DNA from: Nannocystales bacterium
GTDB lineage: Bacteria > Myxococcota_A > Polyangia > Nannocystales > Nannocystaceae
Assembly: GCA_050633305.1 (NCBI GenBank)
Contig: JBOEGF010000010.1
Span: 544,001-608,000, forward strand
Length of the DNA: 64,000 nt
Reading direction: 5' to 3'
Below the pieces are notes generated by a model. That model ran no database searches, was not told the DNA's origin, and saw only the letters and a program-made list of their open reading frames with translations. Numbering within the stretch: position 1 is the stretch's first letter; every line of letters starts with the position of its first letter. The position numbers and the translations under genes were made by a program. Shown one piece after another: positions 44,554-64,000 of this stretch.

Positions 44554-44556
44554 GTA

Positions 44557-47654: not shown

Positions 47655-48619
47655 AGCTCCTTGATGACGGGGACCAAGGTCTCCAAGAGGGTTTCGGATC
47701 GTAGCTTGGCCTCGAGTGTCCCCTGCATCCCATCGTAGACGCGATATTCGGTGCCGTCGGCCTCGAAGACGTCGGAGGGGAGCTCCGTTTCAACCACGAC
47801 CACCGGGCCATGCAGCTCCAACGCGCCTTCGCGGTCGCGACCGAGAAACCGCATCGCCTCGGCCGGGCCCACAACCTCGTCGGCTACAGAACGCACGAGG
47901 ACTTGTTGCCGGCTGTCGGAGAACCCCTCGAGTTCGAGATAGAACTGGGTGTCGGCGGCGCTGAGTAGAGGCCGGTAGTGCCCCGGGAACAAGGCCACGA
48001 TGACGGTGCTCGAGCTGTCTCGTTCGACCGAAACCACCGCATCGCCTGGGCCCACGGCTTGTCCGGGGTGGACTCTCACGTCCGAGACGACTCCGGGTTG
48101 CGGGGCGAGGATGGAACGCTCTTTGAGCCGAGCCTGTGCACGCTGAAGTTCGGCATCCAGCGCCGCCAAGCGCTCGCGGCGAACGTCCGCTTCGGGGAAA
48201 CGCAGGACCTCGACCAGACGCTGGTGGTGTTCGCGCCGAACTCGCTCAAGCTCCGCCCGTTGGGCCGCGTCATCGAGGCGAACGAGGACTTGTCCGGCCA
48301 CGACGCGCTGACCGTGTTCAACCTCGATGGTCTGTACAGTCCCGACGACCGCGGAGGTCGCGGCTTCGCGGCCGTCGCGTCGCAAGATGGCGACGCCCTG
48401 AGCGTACTCACCAACCCGGGCCGTCGCCGCGAACAGCATCGCCGCGAACGCGACCACCACCGTGACCACGACCGCCCACCGAGTCCATGTGGACACGATG
48501 TGCAGCGGTCGGCCCGGGCGAGCACCCATGCGGTGCGCCTTGAGGGCCTCCTCGCGGAACTGGATCCTGCGGGCCTGGGTCGGCCCGCTGGGTTGCTGCT
48601 GCTTGCTCGGCTCGCTCAC
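47651..48619 (-). CDS. HlyD-family secretion adaptor, copy 1
   Basis: FREEAL N-terminal motif typical of bacteriocin-associated HlyD; single TM; GQRVVAGQVL, ILAPQPGVV and GMQGTLE. Confidence 0.88.
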   Translation of the reverse strand: MSEPSKQQQPSGPTQARRIQFREEALKAHRMGARPGRPLHIVSTWTRWAVVVTVVVAFAAMLFAATARVGEYAQGVAILRRDGREAATSAVVGTVQTIEVEHGQRVVAGQVLVRLDDAAQRAELERVRREHHQRLVEVLRFPEADVRRERLAALDAELQRAQARLKERSILAPQPGVVSDVRVHPGQAVGPGDAVVSVERDSSSTVIVALFPGHYRPLLSAADTQFYLELEGFSDSRQQVLVRSVADEVVGPAEAMRFLGRDREGALELHGPVVVVETELPSDVFEADGTEYRVYDGMQGTLEAKLRSETLLETLVPVIKEL

Positions 48620-48646
48620 ACGGTCCCCTGCGTGGAATCTCCGCAG

Positions 48647-49588
48647 CTAGACTTTGCCCACGGCGTGGGAGGAGAGCGCATCGCACAAGGGACCGGTGAT
48701 GTCGACCCCGGCGCGGGCTTCGAATCCCAGGAACATGGGAGAGGGGTTCAACTCGAGGATCCGATAGCGGCCCTCGCGGTCGGCCTTGATGTCCATGCCC
48801 GTGAAGCGAAGGCCCAGGGTCGCCGTGGCGCGTCGGCACTGCGCCGCCACTTCGTCGCTGAGCTGGATCGCCTCGATCTTCTGCTCGTTTTGGCGGAAGT
48901 CGATCTCGTCGGTCACGATTCGCAGCGCGCAGATGACTTGGCCGTCGATGATGTACACGCGCACATCCTCGCCGGGGAGCAACTCCTGGAAGCACACCGG
49001 GGCGGACTCGAGCCGAGCGAGGCGTTCGTCGGTGAGGTGCTCGGGCTCGACCTTGCGCGTGGCCGCACCTCCGGTCACAGGCTTGTAGATCGCCTCGTGC
49101 TCGGCGCAGAAGCGCCGGACCGCAGCGGGGTCGTTGCTCCAAAGGGTAGCCGGAACGGGTAGCTCCGCCGCGTGCAGCAACGCCAGCTGGTACGGCTTCG
49201 TGATGTTGATGCTCGTCGAAGACGGGTTGTACAGAGCTGAACCTGCCAGCTCCCATCGGAGCAACATCGCGGCAAGCGGAGTGGAGCGCTCCCGGAAGGC
49301 AAGCATCGTGCGCCGCCAGTTCTCCTGCATCGCCTCGTCGGCTTCGACGCCGAAGCCGGCAGGGCTCTGATACAGACTGCGTACGTAGACAGCCGCGGGG
49401 CGGCCCAACGCTTGGCCGTCGAGCTCGACCGCCTCGTTGGCCTCGCCGAGCGATAGGGTCATTTCCTCGGGAAAACGCTGTGCATCGAGCACGAGCGGGT
49501 CAAGCCCGCGCTTTTGCAGTTCGTCGTGGACGGCACGCGCGTGCGCATCTTCGAGGGACCCGGCAATGACGATTGGGGGGGACGCCAC
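48647..49588 (-). CDS. psnB: ATP-grasp peptide macrocyclase (RimK-like graspetide synthetase, PsnB-type)
   Basis: KPYQL, VPATLWSND, IYKPVTGGA, FQELLPGEDVRV, DFRQ, GLRFTGMD and ILELNPSPMF; heads the export operon next to the TTxxxxEE precursor. GTG start inferred. Confidence 0.9.
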   Translation of the reverse strand: MASPPIVIAGSLEDAHARAVHDELQKRGLDPLVLDAQRFPEEMTLSLGEANEAVELDGQALGRPAAVYVRSLYQSPAGFGVEADEAMQENWRRTMLAFRERSTPLAAMLLRWELAGSALYNPSSTSINITKPYQLALLHAAELPVPATLWSNDPAAVRRFCAEHEAIYKPVTGGAATRKVEPEHLTDERLARLESAPVCFQELLPGEDVRVYIIDGQVICALRIVTDEIDFRQNEQKIEAIQLSDEVAAQCRRATATLGLRFTGMDIKADREGRYRILELNPSPMFLGFEARAGVDITGPLCDALSSHAVGKV

Positions 49589-49771
49589 GGCGGCACCGTA
49601 CCACCGGGAGCGAACGGCCCACGGGACTGCGACGAATCGGGATACCTGGCACACCCATCGCGAACCCGGGCCGAGTCACCCGGCGACAGAATGGGATGAC
49701 CCGAGGAAACGCAAAACGCGCCATCTCCCCACCACCCCATCCCGTCCCGCACGGCAGCCCCCGGATGCGCG

Positions 49772-51061
49772 CTACCCCTCGGGCGTGGTGCCGACCGAGA
49801 CGCTGCCGCCATCGGCGATCCACCGGAAGTTGTCCAGCAGCACGGTGGAGTCAAAGGCGGCATCGCCGGTGTCCCAGATCGCGAACCGGATGGTCAGTTC
49901 CTGCCCACCAGTCACCGGGGCGGTGGTGACCAGCCAGCTCGTTGCGCCTGCGTCATTCCACACGTCGAACCCAGTGCCCGCTAGCTCTGCTGTCCCCAGA
50001 GGGCATCCCGCGCAGACCTCGAAGAACGCGATGTTGACGCTCACCGGGTTGGTCATGCTGTCGAACGAAATGTTCCCATTGATGGCCCCCTCGGGAGCAG
50101 GTGTGACGTGGGCGATGTACTGGTCGTTGTACGAGTCGCAGACCCACTCGGGATATTCGAACGAGTAGAAGTTGAAGTTGTACGAGAACCCCGTCGCGTT
50201 TGTCGGGGTACGTAGGGTGACCTCGAGAGCGACATCGTCGTTGATGTCGGATTCTCCAGGGCACTGGGGCACGTCCTGCGGGAATCCCGGTGGTGGTGTG
50301 CCCGGGCCGAAGCCAAAGCAGGTCTGCGAACCGCAGGCATCGGGCTGGCCGGGAGTCCGAGCGTTCCCGGTCGAGAGAACCAACATCTGGCTTCCTTCTT
50401 GGGGGGCGACGTTGGGTCCGAAGTCGAACGACAAACCCGTTTGTGCGGACGCCCCTGCCACCGGGGTCCCATTGGCGCGAACGTACTGCGCATTGATGAT
50501 GCCCCAGTCCGTATCGTCCGCGGCGACCTTGCACAGTCCCATCGCACCCGCTCCCGAGAGGGGGTCTGCGTCGTTGAGCACGTATGCGCCGTCGCAGGCC
50601 GGAGGTATGTTGTCGACTCCGCCATCGCAGTCCTCATCGGCCGGGCTCGGGACCATGCCCATCTCATCGGGCTCGAGGTCGATGACTTCGATCGCACCCG
50701 GGTTGACGTTGGCATCGCAGTCGTTACAGTCGCCGTCGAGCACCGTGAAACCGTCGCCGTCGAGGTCTTCCATGGGCCCGGACTTGCAGCTGTCCTCGGT
50801 TCCGCCGCTGTCGTTCCCGGGCTCGAAGCCCACGTCCCACTTGATGTCGTCGGTCGGTTGCCCGCCGCCACTGGAGTCCGTCTGGCCGCCGTCCGTCGCG
50901 GTCGCCTCGTCGTCACTGGTCTCACTGGGGTCCTCCGCGTCGATGCCCCCAGTGGCGGTCAGACTGCTCGCGGAGTCAAATGGATCGTCGTCCTGTCGGG
51001 TGGAGTCGCAGCCCGGCAGTGCCAGCACGGTACAGAAAGCCGTCAGTATTCGGTGGTCCAT
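49772..51061 (-). CDS. Lipoprotein with MopE-like metal-binding motif and choice-of-anchor L-like domain
   Basis: LALPGC lipobox; DLDGDGF...DCND.DANVNPGA.E...DEDCDG; VLSTG, FYSFEYPEWV...YND and IRFAIWDTGD..FDSTVLLDNF. Confidence 0.8.
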   Translation of the reverse strand: MDHRILTAFCTVLALPGCDSTRQDDDPFDSASSLTATGGIDAEDPSETSDDEATATDGGQTDSSGGGQPTDDIKWDVGFEPGNDSGGTEDSCKSGPMEDLDGDGFTVLDGDCNDCDANVNPGAIEVIDLEPDEMGMVPSPADEDCDGGVDNIPPACDGAYVLNDADPLSGAGAMGLCKVAADDTDWGIINAQYVRANGTPVAGASAQTGLSFDFGPNVAPQEGSQMLVLSTGNARTPGQPDACGSQTCFGFGPGTPPPGFPQDVPQCPGESDINDDVALEVTLRTPTNATGFSYNFNFYSFEYPEWVCDSYNDQYIAHVTPAPEGAINGNISFDSMTNPVSVNIAFFEVCAGCPLGTAELAGTGFDVWNDAGATSWLVTTAPVTGGQELTIRFAIWDTGDAAFDSTVLLDNFRWIADGGSVSVGTTPEG

Positions 51062-51192
51062 CGCTCCAGTGTCCTCTCGGCCGCGGGTCGTCCGGCCAGC
51101 GGCCCCAGATTGTTGCACGCTTTGGGCCGAGCTCGCCCCGAGGCCGTCGATGAACTGCTGTAAACGCCGAAGGCCTGCCCTCGCGTGACGGA

Positions 51193-51696
51193 CTACCCAC
51201 ACTGGCCGAGCGCCGGCGCCTGGAAGGTGTCGGACGTCTGACCGCTCGGGAAACATGGTACCCAGCCCGTAGGAGGGATGCAGCGTCTTCCGGTCGCGTA
51301 GGCGGAACGAAGATCTTGGCTGCATAGGAACGACTCTTCCTTACAGACCGAGAACTGTCCGCATCCGAGGAAGGTCGGTTCGGCCGAGCAGTCGACGTCG
51401 GAGTCAGTGGTGCAGCGCGTGACGAGATGGCCGTAGACGGCCGAGCACCCCTCGGCTTCACACTGGTCCTCGGTTCGACCGCTGCAGGAGATCGGCTCGG
51501 GGACCCCGCCGACGGTGACCTCCTCGAACTCGCACGTGCTCGCGGGGAGGTCTGCGTGTGGGGCCACGTCTGCGCGCGCGGATACGTCCGTGGTTTCTGC
51601 AACGTCGTCTTGGAGTGCAGTCTCGTCCGATGCGCAGCCCGCAGCAGTGAGCAAGCGGACCAAGCTCAGCGTTGTGACAACCCGCGTCCACGCCAT
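51193..51696 (-). CDS. Small Cys-rich lipoprotein
   Basis: LTAAGC lipobox; more than ten Cys in the mature part. Confidence 0.65.
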   Translation of the reverse strand: MAWTRVVTTLSLVRLLTAAGCASDETALQDDVAETTDVSARADVAPHADLPASTCEFEEVTVGGVPEPISCSGRTEDQCEAEGCSAVYGHLVTRCTTDSDVDCSAEPTFLGCGQFSVCKEESFLCSQDLRSAYATGRRCIPPTGWVPCFPSGQTSDTFQAPALGQCG

Positions 51697-51760
51697 CCGC
51701 GGAGGGTAGCAGTCCCGAGCTTGCCAGCGGCAGGGGGCCGTGCCGGTGCGCGTGCGGGAG

Positions 51761-52654
51761 TCATGGAGGCGCCTCCAGACGAACTTGCCCGACGGCGCCG
51801 ATGCGGAGGCTCTCGCGCTGCTGTGCGCTTGGGGTGAGGGTGGCCTCTGCGATCACGAGACGGGTCCCAGGGTCGATCTCCGGTGCGATGGAGCGAACAG
51901 AACCGCGCAGCTCTACCGTAGTTGAACTCGCTGGCCGCTCGAAGAGAACGGTGACGGGCGCCGCGAGGCGCAGGGTGCCGACGCGTGCTTCGGGCACGGC
52001 AAAACGAACGCACCAATCGCTCGAGATCAGTTGAACGACGGGCTCCCCTGCGTCCAGAGTCGACCCTGCGTCGACGTAACGCTTGGCAATCCGGCCCGCA
52101 AACGGGGCGCGTAGCTCCGCCTCCTCGAGTCGGGCCGAGGCTTCGTTCATGTTGTTTCGGCGCTCGGACACGGAGGCTCCTGCGCTACGGATGCGCGCGC
52201 GTGCGAGCTTCTCCTCGAGTCGTTGGACACGAAGCTCGGCCCCGGGTACGAGACCTTCGAGCTGCTCGCTATCCTCGCGGATGGCTCGGGCCTGCTCGAG
52301 TTCGAGCGCGAAACGCTCGAACTCGGCGCTCGACGACCGCCACGCCGCTTTCGCCGAGACCATTTCGCTTTCGTCCTGGCGGACATCCATCTGGGCCACG
52401 ACATCGCCACGGGCAACGGCATCCCCGACCTGGACATCGATTTGTTGCAGACGGGCGAAGCGGCGGGCGACGAGGACGACGTCCGAAGCTGGGACGAGCA
52501 CGCCGAGCATGGCTGCATCGTGCGCGTCGGGGGCCTCCCGAAGCGTGGCCGTCGCGGGGGTGGTCGGTGCGGTGGTGTCCCGCTCTTTCGCGGGCGCGTC
52601 AGGGGTGCATGCGCAACTGACAAGCAGCACGATGGTCCAGCATCGTAGTCTCAT
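51761..52654 (-). CDS. Efflux periplasmic adaptor (MFP) lipoprotein, copy 2
   Basis: LVSCAC lipobox; MLGVLVP, VGDAVARGDVVAQMDVR, LRAPFAG and APEIDPGTR; paralog of 44557-45453; ATGA overlap with PCAT 2. Confidence 0.88.
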   Translation of the reverse strand: MRLRCWTIVLLVSCACTPDAPAKERDTTAPTTPATATLREAPDAHDAAMLGVLVPASDVVLVARRFARLQQIDVQVGDAVARGDVVAQMDVRQDESEMVSAKAAWRSSSAEFERFALELEQARAIREDSEQLEGLVPGAELRVQRLEEKLARARIRSAGASVSERRNNMNEASARLEEAELRAPFAGRIAKRYVDAGSTLDAGEPVVQLISSDWCVRFAVPEARVGTLRLAAPVTVLFERPASSTTVELRGSVRSIAPEIDPGTRLVIAEATLTPSAQQRESLRIGAVGQVRLEAPP

Positions 52655-54855
52655 TCGACGTTCCTCTCGTACAGCCGGCGATAGACGGACCCTGTGCGCA
52701 GGAGTTCGCGGTGTGTCCCCATTTCGACGACCTCTCCGCGTTCCATCACCAGGATTAGATCCGCGTTGAGGACAGTGCTCAGTCGGTGGGCGATGACGAC
52801 CCGGGTGCACTCGAGGGCGGCAAGCGAGCGCTCGATGGCGGCCTCGGTCACCGTGTCGAGGTTGCTTGTCGCCTCGTCGAGCAGCAGGGTCGCGGGTTTG
52901 CTGGCCAACGCTCGTGCGAGGGCGATTCGCTGACGTTGCCCACCGGACATCGAGGCGCCTCCGTCGGCCAGAATCGTTTCGTAGCCCATCGGGAGAGCGA
53001 CGATGTCGTCGTGGATCGCTGCGCGTTTGCAGGCGTCCGTGACCGCCTCCAGCGTCAATCCGGGCTGCCCCAGCGCGACGTTTTCCCTCACAGACATCGC
53101 GAAGAGATCCGTACGTTGCGTGACGACGCCGAGTTGTTCTCTGACGCTTCGAAGCTCGAGCCCCGCGAGGTCGATACCGTCGTACAGCACCCGACCTGCA
53201 GTCGGTGGGTATAGTCCGACCAGCAGCTTGGCCAGCGTGCTCTTTCCGGCGCCCGAGGCGCCGACGACCGCGACACACTGCCCGGGCTTGATCTCGACCG
53301 ACACCTCTCTCACCGCCATCGGCGTCGCCTCGCTGTACCGGTACGAGACATACTCGGCCTTGATGGCCCCGGTCAGTCTCGGCGCCCGAGTGACCTTCGC
53401 CGGGTCTTGCTCGGTCTCGGTCTGCATCACGTCCTCGATCCGCTCGAGGTACGAACCCAGCAACTGGAACTTGAAACTCACCCGGACCAGCGCACCCAGG
53501 GGGGTGAGGAACGCCGCGCCCAACGCAGAGACGCCCAGCATCACGCCGAGGGTCAAGCCCCCGTCGAATACCATTTTGGCGCCTGTGCCAAGGATGATCA
53601 GCGGGGCTGCCATGCCGAACGTGCTCAACAATGAGTTGACCACAGCATCCAGTCGTCCACGCCGCAGTGAGACGTTGAGACTATCGATGAAGAGGTTGGA
53701 CCACCGTGCAACCGCTCGAGATTCGGCGCCGATGCACTTGAGCGTCTCGATGCCCGTGAGCATCTCGACCTCGTAGCCCGACGTCTTTGCCTGGCAGGCC
53801 AGGCTCTCGCTCATCAGCTCGCGTTGGAGGCGGCGGGTTGCCCAGTACAGCGAGACCTGGACGGCCGCCAGGGCGACAACGACTGTCGCCATCGGTGGGC
53901 ATGCCCAGAACAGCAGGCCCAGATAGAGGGTGACGAGGGCCCCGTCGAGCACGGCCGACATTGCGCCTGATGTGAGGATCTCGCGGACGGTGGCATTGCT
54001 GCCCAATCGCAGCAGCAAGTCGCCGGCCGAGCGCCGTTGAAAGAATGAGAACGGGAGGTCGATCAGGTGGTCGAGAAAGCCCACCGTCATTCTTGCGTCG
54101 AGTAGGGCGCGGAGCTGCAGGAGCAGGTTGGCCCGAACGAGTGCGCTGACGAAGTTGAAAGCGACCATCAGGGTCAAGCCCACGGCCAGCACGGAAAGAA
54201 GGTCGGTGTCGCGCCGTGGAAGGATGCGGTCGACGAGCAAGGTCGTCATGAGCGGCAAAGCCAGCGCAAGGACCTGGAGGAGCAACGACATCATGACGGA
54301 GCGGCCCCACAGGTCGGGATAGGCCTTGAGGTGCGCGAAGTACCGTTGCAGGAGAGGGCGCCGGCGCACACCGGGCTCGAAGGTCTCTCCGGGCTCGAGC
54401 AACAGCGCCACCCCCGTGAACGCTCCGTCGAACTCCGCTCGGGAGACTCGGCGTTGGCCGTGGGCGGGATCGAGGATGGTCACGTCACCCCGCCGGCCGA
54501 CCCGTTCGAAGACGACGAAGTGGTTGAAGTCCCAGTGCAGGATTGTCCCGGCGGGGATCAGATCGAGCTCTTCGAGGCGTTCGAGCTGCACGCCTCGCCC
54601 GCGCAGGCCGTAGCGGCGAGCAGCTGCGAGGATCCCTTGCGCACTCACGCCGTTTTGGTCGGCTCCGGTTGAGTCGCGGACTTCGTCGAGCGGAGTCTCG
54701 CGTCCGTAGTAGCGTAGGACCATCGCGAGGCAGGCGGCGCCGCAGTCCGTGGCCGTCAGCTGCTGCACGCGCTCCAGCCGACGCTTGGATGAACGCCCGA
54801 GTCGGTTCAGGGCGGGAAAGCGGGACGCGAGCGCATGTTCGGGGGCGGAGTTCAT
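52651..54855 (-). CDS. Peptidase C39-containing ABC transporter (PCAT), copy 2
   Basis: QQLTATDCGAACL, HWDFNHFVV, DPAHG, GASGAGKST, MSGGQRQR and LLLDEATS. The ATG at 54855 gives the same length (734 aa) as copy 1. Confidence 0.96.
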   Translation of the reverse strand: MNSAPEHALASRFPALNRLGRSSKRRLERVQQLTATDCGAACLAMVLRYYGRETPLDEVRDSTGADQNGVSAQGILAAARRYGLRGRGVQLERLEELDLIPAGTILHWDFNHFVVFERVGRRGDVTILDPAHGQRRVSRAEFDGAFTGVALLLEPGETFEPGVRRRPLLQRYFAHLKAYPDLWGRSVMMSLLLQVLALALPLMTTLLVDRILPRRDTDLLSVLAVGLTLMVAFNFVSALVRANLLLQLRALLDARMTVGFLDHLIDLPFSFFQRRSAGDLLLRLGSNATVREILTSGAMSAVLDGALVTLYLGLLFWACPPMATVVVALAAVQVSLYWATRRLQRELMSESLACQAKTSGYEVEMLTGIETLKCIGAESRAVARWSNLFIDSLNVSLRRGRLDAVVNSLLSTFGMAAPLIILGTGAKMVFDGGLTLGVMLGVSALGAAFLTPLGALVRVSFKFQLLGSYLERIEDVMQTETEQDPAKVTRAPRLTGAIKAEYVSYRYSEATPMAVREVSVEIKPGQCVAVVGASGAGKSTLAKLLVGLYPPTAGRVLYDGIDLAGLELRSVREQLGVVTQRTDLFAMSVRENVALGQPGLTLEAVTDACKRAAIHDDIVALPMGYETILADGGASMSGGQRQRIALARALASKPATLLLDEATSNLDTVTEAAIERSLAALECTRVVIAHRLSTVLNADLILVMERGEVVEMGTHRELLRTGSVYRRLYERNVE

Positions 54856-55787
54856 CGATCCTCGAATCTGGGCAGGAGGGTCTCCAGGAGCGTCTCGGAG
54901 CGCAGCTTGGCTTCGAGTGTCCCTTGCATGCCGTCGTAGAGTTCGTAGTAGGTGTTGTCGGCGGCGAAGGTGCGGGTGAGCATCTCGGTCTCGACCACGA
55001 CGACCGGACCTCGCAGATCCATCGCCCCTTCGCGGTCGGGGCCGAGGTAGCGCATTGCCTCTGTGGGGCCCACGACCTCGTCCGCAATCGAGCGCACTCT
55101 GACCGCATGACGCTCCTCGGGGAAGCCCTCGAGTTCCAAGAATAGGGTGCTTTCGTCGGCGCTCAACAGGGGGCGGGTTCGCCCAGGGAAGAGCCCGATG
55201 ATCACCGTACGAGAATCGTCGTCGTCGAGAGACACGATGGCGTTGCCGGGGGCCACCGCTTGGCCCGGACGCACGCGGACGTCGGAGACACGCCCTGCCC
55301 GAGGCGCACGCACCGAGCGCTCGTTCAGCTTGGCGCGTGCAAGCTGGAGTCGAGTGTCGACCGCCGCGAGTCGCTCGTTTCGGGCACCGTCCGAGGGGTC
55401 GCGTAGCAACTCGACCAGGCGCTGCTGGTGCTCTCGGTCGACACGGCCCAGCTCGGCGACCTGCGTAGCGTTGTCCAACGTTGCCAAAACCTCGCCTTCG
55501 TGGACCCACTGCCCAGGTCGAACATCGATGCTCTGTATCGTCCCCGCGACGGCCGAGCTGACCACGCTACGTCCCTCGCGACGGACCACCGCGATGCCCT
55601 GAGCGTACTCACCCACCTGAGCGGTCGCGGCGAAACCAAGCCCCGCCAGGACCGCGAGCACCGACACCCGTGTCGCCCACCGGGCCCACGACGAGGCGAT
55701 GTTGAGTGGTCGCCCCGAACGCGCTCCCCGGCGGTGCGCCTCCAGGGCCGCGTTGCGGAATCGAGGGCCTCGGCCGTGGCTGCTCAC
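54852..55787 (-). CDS. HlyD-family secretion adaptor, copy 2
   Basis: FRNAAL, VGEYAQG, GLFPG, ELEGF, DEVVGP and DGMQGTLEAKLRSETLLETL are shared with copy 1. Confidence 0.88.
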   Translation of the reverse strand: MSSHGRGPRFRNAALEAHRRGARSGRPLNIASSWARWATRVSVLAVLAGLGFAATAQVGEYAQGIAVVRREGRSVVSSAVAGTIQSIDVRPGQWVHEGEVLATLDNATQVAELGRVDREHQQRLVELLRDPSDGARNERLAAVDTRLQLARAKLNERSVRAPRAGRVSDVRVRPGQAVAPGNAIVSLDDDDSRTVIIGLFPGRTRPLLSADESTLFLELEGFPEERHAVRVRSIADEVVGPTEAMRYLGPDREGAMDLRGPVVVVETEMLTRTFAADNTYYELYDGMQGTLEAKLRSETLLETLLPRFEDR

Positions 55788-55880
55788 GCGGACCTCTTGG
55801 TGTGGGACGAGCGGGGCATGCTTTCCTACTCCCTCCGCGGCGGACGACGGAGTTCTGACGAACCTGATCTGAGAAAGTTG

Positions 55881-56981
55881 CTACCAGACCAAGTCGGGCA
55901 TGAAATCCTCATGGACGAGTGTCAACACGCGGTGGGCCCCGCTACCGGGCCGTAGGTGCTTGGCAAGGTCGCAGGCGAGCTGGGGCAGGGCCGCTCGGAG
56001 GCTTTGGGCCCGTGTGCGGCAGTTGTCCTGCTCTTGGGTCGTGAGGGCGTCGGTACGGAGCAGTGCCTGGTGTAGCTGGATCACGCAGCGGTAGATCACC
56101 AGCGCCTGGAGCATCGTCACCAGGGGTCGCATCTGGCCGGAAATGGGGGAGCGCAGGCTCGGTCCCCACCGCGGTAGGCCACACGGCGGGCAGAGTTCCC
56201 ACCAGAGCCACATGCGCTGGTGCAGATACTCGTGCAACAGCCCCTCGCACAAGGCAGGCACTCCAACGGAGAAGGGATTGACGAAGACCGCTCCGGGCAG
56301 GCGTAGGCGCAGGTTGAAACTCCAGTGCGCTTGGGGCAGAGGCTGCCCTTGTTCGTGGGGAACGGGGGGCAGCAGTGCGGTTGTGGTGATGGTGCGCTCA
56401 AAGTCGGCGAACACCACCTGGTCGACTCGGGACAGCAGAGCCCGTGCTCGCTCGTATTGCCGCAGGGCGTGCGCCGAGCAACCCGGCTTGGCCGACATTG
56501 CGTACACCGGAGGAAACGGAAGGTCTGCGAACAGCCCGGGGATGGGGAAATACACAACGTGTCCCCCGGCGGACCTGCGATGGGCATCGAGGGCGATGAC
56601 CTCCCCGCCGCGGCGCTCGACCACACCGTGGCCCAGGTGGGGCAGGCGGTAGATTCCGCTCTCAATGCCCGGGCCACTGGGGGATACGCCTCCGCTCAGC
56701 ACGTCGAGTCGATGCAGCAGTTGAGTTGCCGTATCCAGGTCGGGGCACCGATCGCCCAGACAGACGAGGGGCGCATGGATTTCGGGGGAGTTCCCCAACG
56801 CCCGACTCAGGTCCCCAAGGCGTGCCTCGAGCGCGTCGAGCTGCGTGTCCAGGGCCCGCAGGGAGGCGTTCTTACGGCGACTGTTGCGAAGCAACCGCCG
56901 CGGCAGGCTCGAGCGGGCCTGTAGCTGCTGCTCGGCGTTGATCGGGGCCAGGACATCGATCAAGGATTGGACGCGGAACAC
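55881..56981 (-). CDS. HEXXH-motif RiPP-associated protein (putative alphaKG/Fe-dependent peptide beta-hydroxylase)
   Basis: PGAVFV...LCEGLLHEYLHQRM...SPISGQMRPLVTMLQAL resembles RiPP HEXXH domains; GGAGG 8 nt upstream of GTG 56981; overlaps the LanB stop. Confidence 0.72.
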   Translation of the reverse strand: MFRVQSLIDVLAPINAEQQLQARSSLPRRLLRNSRRKNASLRALDTQLDALEARLGDLSRALGNSPEIHAPLVCLGDRCPDLDTATQLLHRLDVLSGGVSPSGPGIESGIYRLPHLGHGVVERRGGEVIALDAHRRSAGGHVVYFPIPGLFADLPFPPVYAMSAKPGCSAHALRQYERARALLSRVDQVVFADFERTITTTALLPPVPHEQGQPLPQAHWSFNLRLRLPGAVFVNPFSVGVPALCEGLLHEYLHQRMWLWWELCPPCGLPRWGPSLRSPISGQMRPLVTMLQALVIYRCVIQLHQALLRTDALTTQEQDNCRTRAQSLRAALPQLACDLAKHLRPGSGAHRVLTLVHEDFMPDLVW

Positions 56982-59632
56982 GTCGCCGACCTCCAGGCGG
57001 TGGTTCGGCCGGCCTCCTGGGGGACGTGGCGCCATCTCTCCAGAAGGTTGCGGGCGAACAGGAGCGCCCAGGCTTCCTCGGCGCGGTTGTGACGGAAGTG
57101 CAACCGTGTGCCGGTCATGTGGACGACCGATCTCAGGTGCTTGCACAAGCGAAGGCGATTGTCCTGCCCAAGCCACGCGCTCAGGTGGTGGGCGCGTTGT
57201 ACGAGCGCAGCGTGCATGGTCTCGTCACCGTCTCCAACTGCCGTGCTCACCAAGGCCCGACGGCGAGCTCTCCACATGTTTCCGACCGCGCGGCGGTCAT
57301 CGGTCGAGTAGCCGAACTCCGCGCAAAATGAGTCGAAAGCACGGCGGCAGAAGGCGTGCTGCGCATCGGGGGAGAGTCCCGCGTAGTCCAAGGTCTGAAG
57401 GATCGCAAGCGCGTACAAGTTGGTGCGCCGGTCGTCCATCAGCGGAAGGCCACTGCAAGCGTCGTAGAGGCTGGCCGAGTCCGCGACGAACAGCGCCTCG
57501 ACCGCCTCGATGTCCGCGGCACCGCCGTAGCGGTCCCACTCACGCACGTAGGGTTCGACCGCAAAGTGCCGAACGATTCGTTGGTCGAGCATGACGTCGA
57601 GCCGCTCCATGAGAGCGTGCATGACCGCGGGCTGCCCCGCAGGGATGCGTAGGCGTAGCTCGCTCTCGACCTCATCGGAGAGGAACACGTAGAAGAACTG
57701 GACCTCGCCGAGGCTCTCGCGAAGCTCGCGAAGGACTGTGGGCATGCGCTCCGACAGCGCGCTTACTCGAAGGGTTCGGTACGGGCCGAGCAGGGCACCG
57801 GGGGCAGGACGAGGAACTTTGGGGACCCGCAGCCGCTTGGCCACGGACCCGAACGTGACGGGGAGCAGGGCGTGGGCAGCGTGGCCCCGACCGTCAATGA
57901 CAAGGTCTACGGAGGGCAGCCGCTCGGAGACCGCGAGGCGCTGCTGCCGACGAAGCCGCTTGAAGAGGTCTCGTCGTGCCGCGCAGTCGACAGCGGGGTC
58001 AAGGGGCAGCGCGCCACTGCTCGAGTCTACGGTGACCTCGCAGTCGGCCAACCCGACCCGTTCCAGCCATGTCGGCAGCGTGTCTTCGGTGAGCTCCGCT
58101 GGTACGGGGGCCCGACGTCGACACAACACGTGCCCACCGTAGGTGATACGTGGCCGAACCGGGAGTCCCTTGAACGCTACGTCGAGAAGACTGCGACCCG
58201 GGCGTTCTGCGGTTGCAGCTCGAGACAGAAGACGAACCAGTGGGTGCAGTGCCCGGTTGGAGTCGTCGTACGGCACTGGCCGCACGATCCTCAGCTGGCG
58301 TTGCTCCTCACGGGTGCGCACCAGCAGCCTATCCCCGGTCGCGCTGACTTCGAGGTCCTCGAGACGAAGGGTCCGTTGTGAGTCGCTGGCTCGGCCGCAG
58401 TATTCCAGCGCGAGAACCCCTGGGACACGGACGTCTGCGATCTTGTCGAGTACGCCCGGACCTCGGTACGCGAGCATGACCGTCTCGGTCCCTTCCTCGT
58501 CCAACCCTGGCAGGCGCTCCGCGAGCCCCGGCAAGTCGTAGCGGCCGATCAGCTCCCGCGGGTGGGCGGAGAACAAGGCCGGGCCCACCAGGCGACCGTC
58601 GGCACTCCATCGAGTGCCGAGCAACATGACGCCCGACCACGACGATGCGGGCAAGGGGGCGTCGGTGAGGTCGATGGACGACTCGAACGCACGAGCTCGC
58701 AGCCAACGCACGAATGGCTCGTCTGCAGCGGCGACCTCGAACTCGGGGTTGTCCGCTCGCTCCAGCAGACCTTCAGCCATCCGCTCGAGTTCAGGCATGG
58801 GGAGCCACCGCCCGTCGAGGCGCTTGTCGAGCAGGCGCTGGAGGACTGGGGGCTCGGACCGTGTGCACCGCAGCAGCACCTCCGCTACCTCCTGCACATC
58901 AGCGAGGGCTGCGGGCATGCGTACCGGCCGGGCGAAGGTGGCGAACGCGTTGGTCGGCGTCTCGGTTGCATCTTGACGGGCGGTGACCTCTGCGACGGCC
59001 TCGCCGAGCGACTCTACGTTCGGCCTGGCCTCGTCGTTCCACAGTGAGCATGCACCTGGGGGCTCGAGGACCCCCATGTCGAGAAGTCGGTCGAGTAGAG
59101 CGCGAACACGATCAGCTGGAATCCCTTCTGTTTGCAGGCAAGTTTCCCACTCGATGCGAGTCCCGCCGCGCTGGCGCAGCAATGCCTCGCGAAGGCCCTT
59201 CGGTAGGCCCAGCCGTTTGGCATGGAACACGTCCGCGGCGACGTCGCGTTGGTAGACGGTGACGGCATCCGCGTGGAACACCGCGCTGGTGGAGACCGCC
59301 AGGGTTTCGGGATGCTTGCCGGGCAGCCGGGCCCCGAGCGGGTGACTGCGCTGCACTCGAACGTCGCTCAGCGACGGTTCGCCTCCGGCGGGTGTCGCGA
59401 TCGCGGCCGCGGCGAACAGGCTGCGAGGGATCGAGCGTGAGCGGGCACGGGCTTCGTACAGCGCCCGAACTGCCGGAAGCTCGCCGCGCTGGATCTGGGC
59501 GGGAAGGTCAGGGTTGGACGACGCGACCGCAATCGCCGCGAGGAACCGTTGTCGTTCGTCCTCGGGCGCGCCATCCCACGAGAAGTCGCTCGGGAACAGG
59601 GACGTTCGCAATACACACCAGTCGACGCTCAT
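56960..59632 (-). CDS. lanB: Class I lanthipeptide dehydratase (LanB-like: glutamylation + elimination domains), divergent
   Basis: VLRT, FLAAIAVAS, YEARARSRSIPRSLFA (cf. YxxRxxxRxTPFGLF), PRITYGGHVL, ELRLR, YVREWDRYGG..IEAVEALFVADS and SVVHMTGTRL. Confidence 0.8.
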   Translation of the reverse strand: MSVDWCVLRTSLFPSDFSWDGAPEDERQRFLAAIAVASSNPDLPAQIQRGELPAVRALYEARARSRSIPRSLFAAAAIATPAGGEPSLSDVRVQRSHPLGARLPGKHPETLAVSTSAVFHADAVTVYQRDVAADVFHAKRLGLPKGLREALLRQRGGTRIEWETCLQTEGIPADRVRALLDRLLDMGVLEPPGACSLWNDEARPNVESLGEAVAEVTARQDATETPTNAFATFARPVRMPAALADVQEVAEVLLRCTRSEPPVLQRLLDKRLDGRWLPMPELERMAEGLLERADNPEFEVAAADEPFVRWLRARAFESSIDLTDAPLPASSWSGVMLLGTRWSADGRLVGPALFSAHPRELIGRYDLPGLAERLPGLDEEGTETVMLAYRGPGVLDKIADVRVPGVLALEYCGRASDSQRTLRLEDLEVSATGDRLLVRTREEQRQLRIVRPVPYDDSNRALHPLVRLLSRAATAERPGRSLLDVAFKGLPVRPRITYGGHVLCRRRAPVPAELTEDTLPTWLERVGLADCEVTVDSSSGALPLDPAVDCAARRDLFKRLRRQQRLAVSERLPSVDLVIDGRGHAAHALLPVTFGSVAKRLRVPKVPRPAPGALLGPYRTLRVSALSERMPTVLRELRESLGEVQFFYVFLSDEVESELRLRIPAGQPAVMHALMERLDVMLDQRIVRHFAVEPYVREWDRYGGAADIEAVEALFVADSASLYDACSGLPLMDDRRTNLYALAILQTLDYAGLSPDAQHAFCRRAFDSFCAEFGYSTDDRRAVGNMWRARRRALVSTAVGDGDETMHAALVQRAHHLSAWLGQDNRLRLCKHLRSVVHMTGTRLHFRHNRAEEAWALLFARNLLERWRHVPQEAGRTTAWRSATCSASNP

Positions 59633-60690
59633 GATGACCTCTTCGGGTAGGGGGGGGAAGGGGGTTCTCGTGGCCGCAGCGGCGGGGGGAGGAACAGATC
59701 GAGGGCGCGGGAGGAGGGCTCCTCCGCGTGCAGCGCAGGCAAGCAGCTGGGTAGGCCAGACAAGGGCCGCAACATGTCGTGGGCGAGTCGTGACGGCACT
59801 CTCGCCCACAGACGGAGGAGGGTGTCCTCGGCCTCGGTCGCCCGGGGTCGGATCCCCGACCGCAAGAACCGGGAGACCACCATCGCCCGCCCTGCGTGGC
59901 CGCAGCAGAACCCAAGGTTCATCTCGCTCTCGTCGGCACTGGCGGCCAGTGCCTTCTGGGCGATGTCCAAGTACGCATCGCAGTCCAACCGAATGGCTGC
60001 TTCGAGATAGACCAGCGCGTGGCCAACGCTTCCGCTGCAGAGGCTGGAGGCCACCCAGGAGTGGTGGACCGGTTGCCCTTCTCGCACGGGCCAGCGCGCG
60101 CACCCGTCATCCTCGGTTCGCAGCCCTGCCAACCAGTCCAGGCCTCGGCGTACCCGATCTCCTTCGACCGGCGAGGGCTCGTTGAGCAACAGCGCGCGAA
60201 AGAGCAGACCTGCGACACCGTGGGCAAACCCCAGCGGCAAGGCCCGGCCGCTCTTTCGGCCGCGCTCGAAGTGGAGGAACTCTTGGTGAATGAAGTCAGC
60301 CCACCCAGGCGGGTCCGGGGAATCGCTGGCCAAGTACACGGGGCCGTCGTTGGCAAAGGTATCGAAGCCCAGCGCACGTGCCGGCGGTGCGAAGTCCTTG
60401 CCGTCCACGCCGCTGAGGCGTCGTTCGGCCCACCTTCGCCCACGAGTTCCGTACAGGAACGAGCCTCGAACCTCGACTGGGACGTCAGGCTCAGGTGCAT
60501 CCAGACTTCGCCAGCGGACGGCGGCTTGCCTCAGATCGAGAACGCTCGCGCCCGCGGTCTGTTCGAGGCATTGTTGCACGAACAAGAGGCCAGGCCAGCC
60601 GCTGCAGATTGTAGGGCCGCCGATCTCGGCGGTCGTCGCATTGCGACAGCGGTCGAGGACCGCCATGAAGGCGTCGGTACGGAGGTTCAT
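59629..60690 (-). CDS. lanC: Lanthionine synthetase C-like cyclase with CCG zinc motif
   Basis: SGWPGLL, FLYGTRG, LGFAHGVAG, RWP, SLCSGSVG and LGFCCGHAG LanC repeats; ATGA overlap with LanB. Confidence 0.85.
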   Translation of the reverse strand: MNLRTDAFMAVLDRCRNATTAEIGGPTICSGWPGLLFVQQCLEQTAGASVLDLRQAAVRWRSLDAPEPDVPVEVRGSFLYGTRGRRWAERRLSGVDGKDFAPPARALGFDTFANDGPVYLASDSPDPPGWADFIHQEFLHFERGRKSGRALPLGFAHGVAGLLFRALLLNEPSPVEGDRVRRGLDWLAGLRTEDDGCARWPVREGQPVHHSWVASSLCSGSVGHALVYLEAAIRLDCDAYLDIAQKALAASADESEMNLGFCCGHAGRAMVVSRFLRSGIRPRATEAEDTLLRLWARVPSRLAHDMLRPLSGLPSCLPALHAEEPSSRALDLFLPPPLRPREPPSPPYPKRSS

Positions 60691-60754
60691 CGCTTGCTCG
60701 TGAACCGGGCCGGTGGCGCAAGGGGGGACCCGCGCCACCGTCCCGAAGGACGTC

Positions 60755-60961
60755 CTACCAGTCGCCCCAGGGGTGGGTGGAGTCGGTGCAGGAGGGGTCG
60801 CCGGGCTTGCACTTCTTCGCGACGGGGGCCGGTGCCGGTGTTGCGCCGGTGTCAGCGGTGCCTCCGTTTGTTCCACCGAGCACGAGGCCAAGGTCCTCCT
60901 CGGTGATGCCGTCGATCAGGTCGTTCAGAGAGCGTTTGTCGTTGTGGGTCTTGCCAAACAT
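60755..60961 (-). CDS. lanA: Putative lanthipeptide precursor with double-glycine leader
   Basis: Leader ends ITEEDLGLVLGG; core TNGGTADTGATPAPAPVAKKCKPGDPSCTDSTHPWGDW (6 Thr, 2 Ser, 2 Cys); directly upstream of lanC on the same strand. Confidence 0.82.
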   Translation of the reverse strand: MFGKTHNDKRSLNDLIDGITEEDLGLVLGGTNGGTADTGATPAPAPVAKKCKPGDPSCTDSTHPWGDW

Positions 60962-61229
60962 CGTTGGATCTTCGCTTTCGTCGTTGTTGCTTTCGTTCGG
61001 AACGAACCCCGGGATTTCCCGGATTCATTGAGCCCTCTGCACCGAGAGCCCGGGTTCTGACGCGGACAACGGTGTTTTTTTGGATGGCGACCAGTCCCAG
61101 CCCAGTCGCGTGATCGAGGCTCTGCGCGATTGGGCCCTGGCATCGAGGCTCGGTGTGCCCCGAACCTGCAGAGACGATTCGTCGTCCGCTGGGGCAACTC
61201 CTCGGTCCCTCGATGCTACCGTTCGAGGT

Positions 61230-62411
61230 GTGAGCGACATCAGGACCTCGGCTTTCCTCGCGCATGCCTTGGTCGGGCTGATGCTGTGCGGCTGCGGCAA
61301 CGACACGGGTGCAGACGATTCCGGGCCCGGGTCCAGCTCGACGAGTGATCTGTCGGCGGGTCCGACGAGCGAGCCGGAGTCCAGTTCGACGACGCAAGAC
61401 ACGGGTCCGAGTCCCCAATCGACGACGGGTACAACCGGTGGGGGGACCGCCACGTCCGATCCCGACACGGGGAGTTCATCCGAGTCCGGGGACACCGGTG
61501 GACTCGTCGACGACGGCCCCGTGGGCTGGGCTAGCGTCGCCGGCCGGGGCGTTCGGACCACCACCGGCGGCGCCGCGGGGCGCACGGTCACGGTCACGAC
61601 GCTCGACGAACTCGAGATGTACGCGGGGGCCGAAGAGCCCTACGTCATCCAGCTCTCCGGGACGATCACCGGATCGGTTCGTGTTCGCTCGAACAAGACC
61701 CTCGAAGGCCTGCCGGGGGCCGAGCTTGTGGGTGGGCTCGCGATCATCGGGGAAGACGACGGCTTCGTCTCCAACATCATCGTCCGGGACCTGACCGTCC
61801 GCATGGACAACTGCCCCGGCGACGGGTGCAGCTCGGATGATGCCGTCACGGTCTATCGAGCGCATCACATCTGGGTCGACCATTGCGACATCAGCGATGG
61901 CGACGATGGAAACCTCGACATCACCGCGGAGTCCGACTTCGTCACGGTCTCGTGGTGTCGCTTCTCATACAGCAACGACTCCGGAGGCCACCGTTTCTCC
62001 AACCTGATCGGTGCCTCGGACGGCGCGACCGAAGACCAAGACGACCTCGCGGTCACGCTGCACCACAACTGGTGGACGGCCAATGTCTCCGAGCGCATGC
62101 CTCGGGTGCGCTTTGGCCCGGTACACGTGTTTAACAACTACTACACGCCAACCGACGCCCTGTACTGCATGCGGGCGGGCTTCGAAGCAGACCTTCGCAT
62201 CGAGAACAACTACTTCGAAGGGGTGAGCAACCCGTTCGACGCTGGCAACACGGCTCCCTCGGCGCAAGTCTTGGCGACCGGCAATGAGTTCAGCCCGATG
62301 CCGATTCCCGAGCCCGACCAGGGCGACGTCTTCGACCCGCCCTACGCGTATTCGCTGGACGCCGCCTCGGACGTTCCTGCTGTGGTCATGGCCGGCGTTG
62401 GGCCGCGATAG
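61230..62411 (+). CDS. Pectate lyase family 1 lipoprotein
   Basis: LMLCGC lipobox; TTGGAAG..VTVTT, VRSNKTLEG, NIIVR, IWVDHC, DGNLD, TLHHNWW, RMPRVR.G.VHVFNNYY and ENNYF. Confidence 0.92.
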   Translation: MSDIRTSAFLAHALVGLMLCGCGNDTGADDSGPGSSSTSDLSAGPTSEPESSSTTQDTGPSPQSTTGTTGGGTATSDPDTGSSSESGDTGGLVDDGPVGWASVAGRGVRTTTGGAAGRTVTVTTLDELEMYAGAEEPYVIQLSGTITGSVRVRSNKTLEGLPGAELVGGLAIIGEDDGFVSNIIVRDLTVRMDNCPGDGCSSDDAVTVYRAHHIWVDHCDISDGDDGNLDITAESDFVTVSWCRFSYSNDSGGHRFSNLIGASDGATEDQDDLAVTLHHNWWTANVSERMPRVRFGPVHVFNNYYTPTDALYCMRAGFEADLRIENNYFEGVSNPFDAGNTAPSAQVLATGNEFSPMPIPEPDQGDVFDPPYAYSLDAASDVPAVVMAGVGPR

Positions 62412-62498
62412 GCCACGGGACCAGAGCCCGACACAGGTGGCGTCGACGGCCTCGGGTGGATCGCCGCCCGTCGGAGAAGAGTGCCTGCCCGCGAGATG

Positions 62499-64000
62499 TC
62501 ATGGGACGCGTCGTGCGTCGAGCCACGACGCAATCGCGTCCACGTCGTCGTCGCGACTCTTCTTGGCGTAGCCGCGGCTGGAGGCCTCGGCGAGTTCGAT
62601 CGCCCGCTGACGATCTCCGTCGCTCGCCCAAAGCGCACGGGCAAGCGGCCACTGAATGTCTTCGACCTCGAGCGGGGGCTCGATCTCGAGGGCCATCCCG
62701 AGCGCGTGTTCGAGCTCTGTTGCCGCCTGGCCGGCCTCTCCCTGTTTGAGCAGAGTCTGTCCGAGCCCCAAGTGTGCCTGCACGGTGGAGTCGATGCGCA
62801 TCTTGTGTTTCTTGTAGATCGATGCGGCTCGCCGGAACCGCTTGCGGGCATCGGTGAGTTCGTCCTGAGCAAGCAACACGTTGCCGAGGAGGGTGAGGGA
62901 GTAGGCTGTCTTGGCGTTGTCCTGGCCCAGGCTTGCTTCGCGGATGCGCACCGAGTCTTCGGCATAGCCGCGCGCTTTGTCCAGGGACCCTTTCCTCAAG
63001 TGGAGCTGGACCAAGTTGTTGAGCGGGAAGCTCAGCTGGGGGTGGTCGGCCCCGAGCAGCGTCCGGTGCATCGTGTGGGCGCGTTCGACATACGCGACGG
63101 CGTCGTCGTACTGACCCTGCAACCTCGCGACTTCGCCGAGGTTGGAAAGGCATGTGGCCAGCAGGGGGTGTTGTGGCCCCAAAACCTCGGCCCAGACGTC
63201 GGCGGCCTCTTCGAAGTACGCTTGCGATTGGTCGAGGTTGCCCTGTCGTGCGACGACGGGCGCCAGGTTGTTGAGCGAGTGGCCGACGTAGAGGTTGCGC
63301 GGTCCAAGTTCGCGTCTGCGAATCTCGAGCGCCTCTTCGTGAAAGGCCTGCGCGCGCTCCAGGTCGCCGGCAATGTCGGCGAGGATGCCCACACTATTGA
63401 GATGCGAAGCGTAGGACAGTGGGCTGGTACGTCGCGAGAGCGCCTCGGAGCTGGTGGACCATGCCCAGGCGACTTCGTACTTGCCGAAGGGTTCGGCGAG
63501 GAGGCCAACGATCATCCGTGCGGCGATCGCAGCCTCGCGGTCCATCAGTCGTCCAAGGGCCAGGCTGTAGCTCCGCTCGAAGCTCGCCAACGACTGTTCG
63601 TAGTCGCCGGTACGACTCGCGGCGATGGCGAGCGAGAGGGAGGCGTGGACATGCAGTGGTTCGTAGTCGAGGGGCTCGGCTTCGGCGGCGGCCGCAGTCG
63701 CGAGCGCGAGACTCTCGTCGTAGCGCCCAAGGTCACCAAGTGCAGCCGCGCGAGCAAGCTTCTCTTCGACCAGCGCCACATGGGAAGCCAGCTCTGGGTT
63801 CTCGGGCGGCGCTTGTTCGGCCAAGAGGGCGTCCGTGTCCGCGCACCGCCCGAGCGAGGGGAGGTCCTCGGTCGCGGTGACCGCGTTGCGCAAGGTGGTG
63901 TCGTCGGTCTCGGCGAGACCATCGAGCATGGCCTGGAGCCGGACCAAACGTCCGTCGAGGCAGCCCATGCGGCGGTCGAGTAGGTCCCCCGACTGCTCGC
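62499..64000 (-). CDS. Tetratricopeptide-repeat protein, C-terminal part (probably a myxobacterial Ser/Thr kinase-TPR protein); 5' end outside the window
   Basis: Repeated AL.I....LG..HP..A..LNNL TPR units; (R)MGCLDGR...CAD region seen in Nannocystaceae kinase-TPR proteins; frame open to the window end. Confidence 0.85.
   Translation of the reverse strand, partial: EQSGDLLDRRMGCLDGRLVRLQAMLDGLAETDDTTLRNAVTATEDLPSLGRCADTDALLAEQAPPENPELASHVALVEEKLARAAALGDLGRYDESLALATAAAAEAEPLDYEPLHVHASLSLAIAASRTGDYEQSLASFERSYSLALGRLMDREAAIAARMIVGLLAEPFGKYEVAWAWSTSSEALSRRTSPLSYASHLNSVGILADIAGDLERAQAFHEEALEIRRRELGPRNLYVGHSLNNLAPVVARQGNLDQSQAYFEEAADVWAEVLGPQHPLLATCLSNLGEVARLQGQYDDAVAYVERAHTMHRTLLGADHPQLSFPLNNLVQLHLRKGSLDKARGYAEDSVRIREASLGQDNAKTAYSLTLLGNVLLAQDELTDARKRFRRAASIYKKHKMRIDSTVQAHLGLGQTLLKQGEAGQAATELEHALGMALEIEPPLEVEDIQWPLARALWASDGDRQRAIELAEASSRGYAKKSRDDDVDAIASWLDARRVP

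Follow-up and report, generated by a model that had tools for sequence, protein, structure and literature searches.

What kind of peptide is made by a gene cluster that joins a LanB-type dehydratase and a LanC cyclase to a precursor with a double-glycine leader and to an HExxH enzyme? This question is raised by seven genes at positions 51761-60961 of a 64,000-nucleotide stretch from a Nannocystales bacterium (assembly GCA_050633305.1, contig JBOEGF010000010.1, positions 544,001 to 608,000), which we call the window. Our analysis showed that a marine-type myxobacterium of the family Nannocystaceae carries here a class I lanthipeptide cluster that is genuine, intact and very rare. The original prediction, made from the DNA letters, had proposed a new family of peptides that are made by the ribosome and modified after translation (RiPPs); what we found is class I lanthipeptide machinery to which one more enzyme has been added. 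It is fairly likely that the product belongs to the class I lanthipeptides and has rings that lead from Cys to downstream dehydro residues, that it is oxidised by the HExxH enzyme, and that it is cleaved and exported by the peptidase-containing ATP-binding cassette transporter (PCAT) of the cluster.

All seven open frames are located on the minus strand, in DNA of 65-69% G+C. Because the longest open reading frames (ORFs) had over-extended starts, the starts were picked by position and coupling. The run begins with the precursor gene lanA (60755-60961, 68 residues, supported by the ORF translation and three relatives). It is followed by lanC for the cyclase (59629-60690, 353 residues from the ATG at 60690), lanB for the dehydratase (56960-59632, 890 residues) and the HExxH gene (55881-56981, 366 residues). 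For the HExxH gene we used the GTG start found in the database copy P0005; an alternative ATG at 57035 would give 384 residues, and both starts overlap the end of lanB. Then come a HlyD periplasmic adaptor (54852-55787, 311 residues), the PCAT (52651-54855, 734 residues) and a second adaptor of the membrane fusion protein type (MFP; 51761-52654, 297 residues). Start and stop codons overlap by four nucleotides (ATGA) at lanC/lanB, HlyD/PCAT and PCAT/MFP, and the run is interrupted only by 64 nt ahead of lanC and by 93 nt ahead of HlyD. The earlier description of seven co-oriented, mostly overlapping genes led by a 68-residue precursor was exact in coordinates and count. It had also stated that no radical SAM gene is present, and none was seen within 51-61 kb of the window.

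The LanB protein matched Lant_dehydr_C (PF14028) with 99.1 bits against a cut-off of 24.4, TIGR03891 with 77.5 bits (cut-off 48.45) and, with partial coverage, Lant_dehydr_N (PF04738) with 38 bits (cut-off 28). The last of these matches was obtained with the trimmed ORF; in the untrimmed ORF of 1047 residues Lant_dehydr_N was missed in Pfam, and it was found after trimming to the real start. The LanC protein matched LANC_like (PF05147) with 42.2 bits against 23.2. Thus, the large frames, for which matches to these profiles had been anticipated, all score above the curated cut-offs. Searches with phmmer against the sequences of the Protein Data Bank (PDB) gave only marginal matches for LanB (E 0.04) and a marginal one for LanC (E 0.016), so a fold comparison was needed.

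A model of LanB was built with AlphaFold2 (AF2) on the alignment of its 11 relatives (pLDDT 80.7) and was compared with known structures by Foldseek. The top matches were the full-length dehydratases MibB (E 1.9e-31), MadB and NisB, with E-values from 1e-31 to 1e-25 in alignments of about 1000-1100 columns. After them came TbtB (E 3e-20) and GodF, which are stand-alone glutamylation domains, and then pyridine synthases, which matched the C-terminal domain. The identity to the solved LanB proteins is only 12-18%. The LanB family has 168 invariant columns over 11 sequences that are 43-72% identical to the window protein, which indicates purifying selection. By its profiles and its predicted fold, LanB is a full-length class I dehydratase with glutamylation and elimination domains and a highly divergent sequence.

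The phmmer alignment of LanC with NisC placed GFAHG on GLAHG, LCSG on WCYG and CCG on CHG. His157, Cys218 and Cys262 fall on their NisC counterparts, and the third zinc ligand is replaced, with Cys263 in place of His. These motifs and the four residues are invariant in 3/3 LanC homologs. By its profile and these residues, LanC is a stand-alone lanthionine cyclase with a predicted Cys-Cys-Cys zinc triad, the CCG lying at residues 262-264. LanM enzymes that have a Cys-Cys-Cys zinc site are highly reactive and tolerant of different substrates. A computational survey, which according to its abstract identified 977 peptides, lists in Table 1 a 'B-CCC' configuration of LanB-type dehydratase plus CCC cyclase, to which the window's pair corresponds; it comprises two predicted peptides, and the accessible text describes no product (PMC11251773). 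The Cys-Cys-Cys LanC is of interest for this reason, since the LanB-plus-CCC entry in that text holds just these two peptides and no named product.

The HExxH protein has no match in Pfam. On the NCBIfam profile TIGR04267 (aKG-HExxH-type peptide beta-hydroxylase; IPR026337) it scored 29.3-29.8 bits (E 5e-7). We also scored its relatives and found that 10/10 matched TIGR04267 at E <= 0.01, the best at 4e-12. The motif reads HEYLH, and H250, E251, H254, Q255, R256, S278, P279, R285 and P286 are invariant in 10/10. When the family profile was aligned with the ChlH sequence, both HExxHQ(R/K) and the SP...RP motif were matched. The AF2 model of the protein (pLDDT 89, pTM 0.89) found just five PDB chains by Foldseek at E <= 0.001, namely four of 8s5f (ChlH; E 1.2e-8, TM 0.58/0.62) and 22ob (SjiH; E 4.6e-7), and the next match had an E-value of 0.2. 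We conclude that the protein is a stand-alone homolog of the alpha-ketoglutarate-dependent (alpha-KG) HExxH-type oxygenases, with a predicted activity. CoiH, a member of a lanthipeptide sulfoxide-forming family, was considered as another identity for this gene and was rejected, as the accessible text of its paper gives CoiH a different fold and no metal site. Together with the exporter genes described below, the proposed identities (LanC, two-domain LanB, HExxH-type oxygenase fold, HlyD, C39 PCAT and MFP) are borne out by profiles and folds.

LanA has no family match in Pfam or NCBIfam. Its 68 residues comprise a leader that ends in Gly-Gly at residues 29-30, an Ala/Pro-rich linker and a C-terminal core of 18 residues with two Cys. 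Three relatives were found (in the genomes G047 and G049, and P0025), which gave an alignment of four precursors (A3). The leader block common to the four is L-N-D, then I-T-E-E-x-L-G-x-V-x-G-G, with L12, N13, I19, T20, E21, E22, L24, G25, V27, G29 and G30 invariant. The common core block is C-K-x-x-[DE]-x-[ST]-C-T-D-x-T-x-P-x-G-[DE]-W, with C51, K52, C58, T59, D60, T62, P64, G66 and W68 invariant. The core thus keeps two invariant Cys, three conserved Ser/Thr positions and an Asp, a Pro, a Gly and a Trp, and the linker ahead of it is variable and Ala/Pro-rich. The leader, as read from the sequences, is hydrophobic at -4, -7, -12 and -15 and acidic at -8, a spacing that we take to be the canonical double-glycine pattern. 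There is no FNLD-type leader box in LanA, and the cluster showed no gene for an S8 protease but has the C39 PCAT instead.

In the precursors of G049 and G047, the first Cys is preceded by neither Ser nor Thr. Because this holds for 2/4 precursors, any conserved ring must run from a Cys to a downstream dehydro residue. The invariant Asp stands immediately after the second Cys and is flanked by two invariant Thr. The position that follows the last Thr is taken by H, H, K or Y in the precursors, which makes His an unlikely target of the oxidation. The precursor of G047 has Tyr where the window LanA has His.

A GC-rich hairpin (60707-60744, minus strand, 12-bp main stem) lies directly after the lanA stop and has no T-run. 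Its fold energy is -47.1 kcal/mol (z = -2.42), and 2/200 shuffles were equal or better; a simple terminator scan did not list it. Hairpins at the equivalent position in G047 and G049 have z = -3.43 and -3.48, with 0/200 shuffles as stable, and the hairpins differ in sequence among the three DNA loci. The element is probably an attenuator or an mRNA-stabilising structure. Scans of 51000-61600 gave no sigma-70 promoter site and four terminator sites, not more than in shuffled sequence (mean 4.9).

We then explored how far this gene set is conserved. The window genome (G000; 11.0 Mb in 90 contigs) holds one LanB gene and one copy of this HExxH gene. At E <= 0.001, the HExxH protein has matches in six of 72 genomes of the family, G000 among them. 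Two of the matches are strong (G049 with 53% and G047 with 50% identity, both of another genus), and three more are marginal (E ~9e-4). No match to the HExxH protein was found in any of six genomes of the same genus, and a DNA search of these six returned the choice-of-anchor L gene that flanks the cluster and generic ABC segments, never the lan genes.

The genome G047 has lanA, lanC, lanB and the HExxH gene in the order of the window. In G049, lanC, lanB and the HExxH gene begin at a contig end, and the precursor gene and the beginning of lanC are found at the end of another contig. Hence the arrangement is not due to chance, as the order of the first four genes is repeated in two other genomes. 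The conserved unit is precursor, LanC, LanB and HExxH enzyme, without the exporter. The HExxH gene is kept with lanA, lanC and lanB in all three genomes with readable DNA, and it is therefore credibly a tailoring enzyme of the peptide. In G047 the four genes are followed by a cytochrome P450 gene on the same strand as the HExxH gene (L008:7275-8696; Pfam p450, 333 bits), which may add a further cross-link or oxidation.

Searches of 5.8 billion protein clusters, in which only the 8000 candidates with the most words in common were scored, returned 10 relatives of the HExxH protein and 11 of LanB, the window's own included. Four LanB/HExxH pairs come from metagenome contigs of equal size (6080, 9578, 7356 and 758083 bases), which suggests that the two genes sit on the same contigs. 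An exhaustive phmmer search of 1.84 billion representatives with the HExxH protein gave 108 matches at E <= 0.001, of which 74 had E <= 1e-10 and 14 had E <= 1e-30; only three of the 108 were at least 47% identical. Very few members make up the family, all of them in uncultured myxobacteria of the marine type, so routine mining is unlikely to come across it.

These results establish the identity of each gene, the folds and the fact that the four core genes are conserved together, and from them we infer every chemical step, the ring pattern, the oxidation site and the use of this exporter. In the pathway that we propose, LanB would first glutamylate conserved Ser/Thr of the C-terminal LanA core by means of glutamyl-tRNA and would then eliminate the glutamate. 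LanC, with its Cys-Cys-Cys zinc site, would add the two invariant Cys to dehydro residues that lie C-terminal to them. The HExxH enzyme, a putative Fe/alpha-ketoglutarate oxygenase, would oxidise the peptide, most likely by beta-hydroxylation of the invariant Asp in C-T-D-x-T, and the invariant Pro would be the second candidate. The family has been described, in the accessible texts, to beta-hydroxylate His, Asp, Phe, Gln and Pro (PMC13060819, PMC12636437); because Asp and Pro are among these residues, Asp is taken as the first candidate and Pro as the second. Finally, the C39 domain of the PCAT would cut after Gly29-Gly30, and the PCAT would export the product with the help of HlyD, of the lipoprotein-like MFP and of an outer-membrane channel whose gene lies elsewhere.

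Several results weigh against this pathway. The HExxH protein lies under the curated cut-off of TIGR04267 (29.8 against 40 bits) and shares only 14-15% identity with ChlH and SjiH, so its reaction could differ from theirs. PflC and PosC, which are members of the family, can cleave the peptide backbone, either oxidatively or by hydrolysis, as far as the accessible text goes (PMC12636437). The activity of LanB is a prediction from profiles and a modelled fold. The exporter trio is outside the conserved unit and does not stand beside the lan genes of G047 and G049, and a paralogous trio 4 kb downstream in the window, on the same strand, serves an ATP-grasp peptide cluster.

The first of these points bears on the reaction itself. 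The HExxH enzyme could act on the peptide without simple beta-hydroxylation, by oxidative or hydrolytic cleavage of the backbone, by forming a cross-link or by making a thioether sulfoxide; a cleavage would trim the Ala/Pro-rich linker or the C-terminus. It may be said for this explanation that the protein is divergent, that the variable linker would need trimming if the product were the 18-residue core, and that PflC and PosC remove a C-terminal tetrapeptide oxidatively, again according to the accessible text (PMC12636437). However, the precursor C-termini differ (W, W, WG and WD) and have no conserved cleavage motif like ARMD, and every other characterised HExxH member described in the accessible literature hydroxylates a side chain. 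For the sulfoxide form, the accessible texts describe one lanthipeptide sulfoxide-forming family beyond the flavoenzymes, CoiH, and it is unrelated to metal enzymes there. We therefore consider it unlikely that the enzyme does something other than hydroxylation, and beta-hydroxylation remains the reading that we follow.

The next question is whether the exporter belongs to the pathway. The PCAT matched Peptidase_C39 (114 bits), ABC_membrane (93 bits) and ABC_tran (113 bits), all above the cut-offs. NHLM_micro_ABC1 was the best NCBIfam profile, but the 604 bits fall short of the 853 required for this equivalog, to which the protein is therefore not assigned. The protein has the stretches TATDCGAAC and NHFVVF, which presumably carry the catalytic Cys and His. 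The HlyD adaptor matched HlyD_3, Biotin_lipoyl_2 and HlyD_D23, and its matches to the NCBIfam profiles RND_mfp, NHLM_micro_HlyD and type_I_hlyD were below the cut-offs. The MFP matched HlyD_3 (59 bits) and RND_mfp (TIGR01730; 102.4 bits against 94.9). Its N-terminus appears lipoprotein-like, with a putative lipobox LLVSC.

The neighbouring cluster consists of a 72-residue repeat precursor (44253-44471, plus strand) with a Gly-Gly leader and four T-T-[LM]-A-[VL]-G-E-E repeats, and, on the minus strand, an ATP-grasp gene (48647-49654) that precedes a second HlyD (47651-48619), a second PCAT with a C39 domain (45450-47654) and a second MFP (44557-45609). This arrangement at 44253-49654 looks like a plesiocin-type graspetide design. 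The two trios of the window are tandem paralogs with 63% identity for HlyD, 71% for the PCAT and 51% for the MFP. The lan-adjacent trio looks like a duplicate of the neighbour's exporter that was placed beside the lan genes in this genome. An ortholog of the ATP-grasp cluster was seen on another contig of G047 (G047:C18), with a 74-residue precursor at L033:13493-13717. Because tblastx comparisons of the window with L033 and L034 were noisy in GC-rich DNA, only long blocks of high identity were used.

These paralogs raise the possibility that the functional cluster is lanA-lanC-lanB-HExxH, and that HlyD-PCAT-MFP is a duplicated general Gly-Gly exporter, which would be a bystander or be shared with the ATP-grasp cluster. 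In G047 and G049, no exporter match was found in about 9 kb and 5 kb, respectively, downstream of the core genes. Their best PCAT matches (74% and 73% identity) are on other contigs, that of G047 beside an ATP-grasp gene and a repeat precursor gene, and both genomes presumably use an exporter encoded elsewhere. The 93-nt gap ahead of HlyD and the paralogy of the trios fit the same explanation. However, the trio directly follows the core genes on their strand, translational coupling links its three genes, and the Gly-Gly leader of LanA needs a C39 peptidase. Among eight other LanB loci of the phylum sample, 4/8 have an adjoining full-length PCAT (36-49% identity, with alignments that start within residues 1-32 of the window PCAT), and the retention of the duplicate beside the lan genes argues for dedication. 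A bystander or shared exporter is thus somewhat improbable, and export by the adjacent PCAT is the reading that we keep.

The combination of leader and exporter is itself less unusual than had been supposed. The original prediction treated a Gly-Gly leader with a C39 exporter as atypical of class I, and such a combination is already in print: Walker et al. (2020) reported class I precursors of Bacteroidetes with Gly-Gly leaders and C39 proteases, and in the accessible part of their text the FNLD box with LanP and LanT is typical of class I and not obligatory (PMC7268733). PCATs also stand beside 4/8 of the other LanB loci sampled in this phylum. The window cluster shares with the Bacteroidetes systems the class I machinery, the Gly-Gly leader and the C39 peptidase, and it differs in leader motif (LxLxKx5L there, L-N-D...I-T-E-E-x-L-G-x-V-x-G-G here) and in phylum. 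The accessible text on the Bacteroidetes systems mentions no HExxH enzyme (PMC7268733).

It should also be asked whether the cluster works at all. It could be silent or decayed, or its product could lack thioether bridges, being dehydrated only, with LanC in some other role. The organism is known from its assembly alone, a search of sequencing runs found this sequence in a single run, of DNA, and in none of RNA, and LanB has diverged so far that its N-terminal Pfam domain was missed in the untrimmed ORF. However, all seven frames are open with coupled starts, the zinc-site and active-site residues of LanC are invariant in its homologs, the two Cys are invariant in 4/4 precursors, and LanB is under purifying selection by its invariant columns. 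Such an explanation is thus very unlikely, and we hold to an intact cluster with a probably thioether-bridged product.

We next explored the pairing of LanB with the HExxH enzyme in 401 genomes of one phylum, which is the sample to which the following counts refer. In total, 98 genomes have a TIGR04267 match, and nine have Lant_dehydr_C, at 10 loci. The two matches lie on one contig only in G000; they are on separate contigs in G217, G367 and G157, and the remaining five LanB genomes have no HExxH match. With tblastn, the window HExxH protein had no match at the eight of nine other LanB loci that were compared; the ninth (G377:C56) was left out because its match is at a contig end. The pairing is therefore unusual within the sampled phylum.

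The nearest outgroups of the HExxH protein with readable DNA (31-44% identity) adjoin radical SAM genes and not LanB. On L012, the contig that encodes P0012 (44% identity by tblastn), a protein with a CxxxCxxC motif begins downstream. On L014 (31% identity) the homolog lies among genes for a B12-radical SAM protein, a SPASM-radical SAM protein, a glycosyltransferase and a methyltransferase. The window genome has a second, canonical HExxH gene (TIGR04267, 96.7 bits) on another contig (C14), directly after a radical SAM gene of 589 residues (L035:5618-8481). This pair represents the usual context of the family and an internal contrast to the lan-linked copy. It had been stated that HExxH proteins occur mainly alongside radical SAM genes of cyclophane RiPPs; the statement was too narrow, since the accessible literature also places them in MNIO, nitrilobacillin and biphenomycin clusters and in many RiPP classes.

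A comparison with known systems shows which features are particular to this cluster. Like the class I systems of NisB/NisC, MibB and MadB, it has a full-length dehydratase fold of the tRNA-dependent type, a separate zinc LanC and a core with Ser/Thr and Cys. Unlike them, it has a Gly-Gly leader and not FNLD, a PCAT and not LanT plus LanP, a predicted Cys-Cys-Cys zinc site and not Cys-Cys-His, conserved Cys residues N-terminal to the conserved Ser/Thr, and an HExxH oxygenase in the conserved unit. The HExxH enzyme shares its motif and fold with ChlH (8s5f), BpmH/BipH, PflC/PosC and PesO, and its stand-alone size with PflC and PesO. In contrast to these, it sits with LanB and LanC, and none of the others is described in such a setting in the accessible texts. 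The four sources consulted place no HExxH enzyme in a lanthipeptide cluster in their accessible parts, and subscription papers and supplements could hold one (PMC12636437, PMC13060819, PMC12707348, 10.64898/2026.08.26.747419). Searches of the accessible literature on TIGR04267/IPR026337 and on myxobacterial lanthipeptides found nothing of this architecture. What is new here is the LanB/LanC-HExxH pairing and the predicted Cys-Cys-Cys zinc site in LanC, and the 'Cys-first' core is also distinctive.

The core invites a comparison with cinnamycin and duramycin, which are class II lanthipeptides. In these, Cys lie N-terminal to their dehydro partners, and the ring system contains a beta-hydroxy-Asp that is essential for target binding. 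The hydroxy-Asp of cinnamycin is made by CinX, a canonical alpha-KG enzyme, and the synthetase is a LanM. The likeness is a functional analogy only, as the fold of the hydroxylase differs and there is no sequence relation. It is possible, though we put it forward as a tentative proposal and somewhat doubtful, that the cluster is the founding example of a lanthipeptide subclass restricted to Nannocystaceae, in which a LanC with three zinc-binding Cys would close 'reverse' rings and an HExxH enzyme recruited from radical SAM clusters would install beta-hydroxy-Asp inside the C-T-D-x-T ring. If this were true, the pharmacophore of cinnamycin would have been re-invented convergently by entirely different enzymes, and a lanthionine scaffold would for the first time be the substrate of an HExxH oxygenase.

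The recognition of the HExxH iron oxygenases reportedly dates only from 2024, and every newly studied member is said to have brought new chemistry. In ChlH, the formation of the cyclophane reportedly gates the oxidation. With an HExxH enzyme tied to LanB and LanC, the family would reach into the thioether peptides, and the four genes would be a compact system for asking if ring formation gates oxidation, as in ChlH. What could be gained in practice is a scaffold and a tailoring enzyme that are both new, and not a new principle or a new class.

The genes that flank the cluster have no match beside the related clusters of G047 and G049, and hence they are not counted as parts of it. Upstream of lanA, within 61080-63968, there are a divergent pectate lyase gene on the plus strand (PF00544, 91 bits) and, on the minus strand, a gene for a protein rich in TPR_12 repeats (FxSxx_TPR, 127 bits against a cut-off of 300), and nothing suggests that either belongs to the cluster. 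Between the two RiPP clusters, within 49772-51696, lie a gene for a Cys-rich lipoprotein-like protein of 167 residues (51193-51696), which has no family match, and the gene for the lipoprotein-like choice-of-anchor L protein, whose real start is probably near 51061. The choice-of-anchor L gene has 70-71% DNA identity in the genomes of the same genus.

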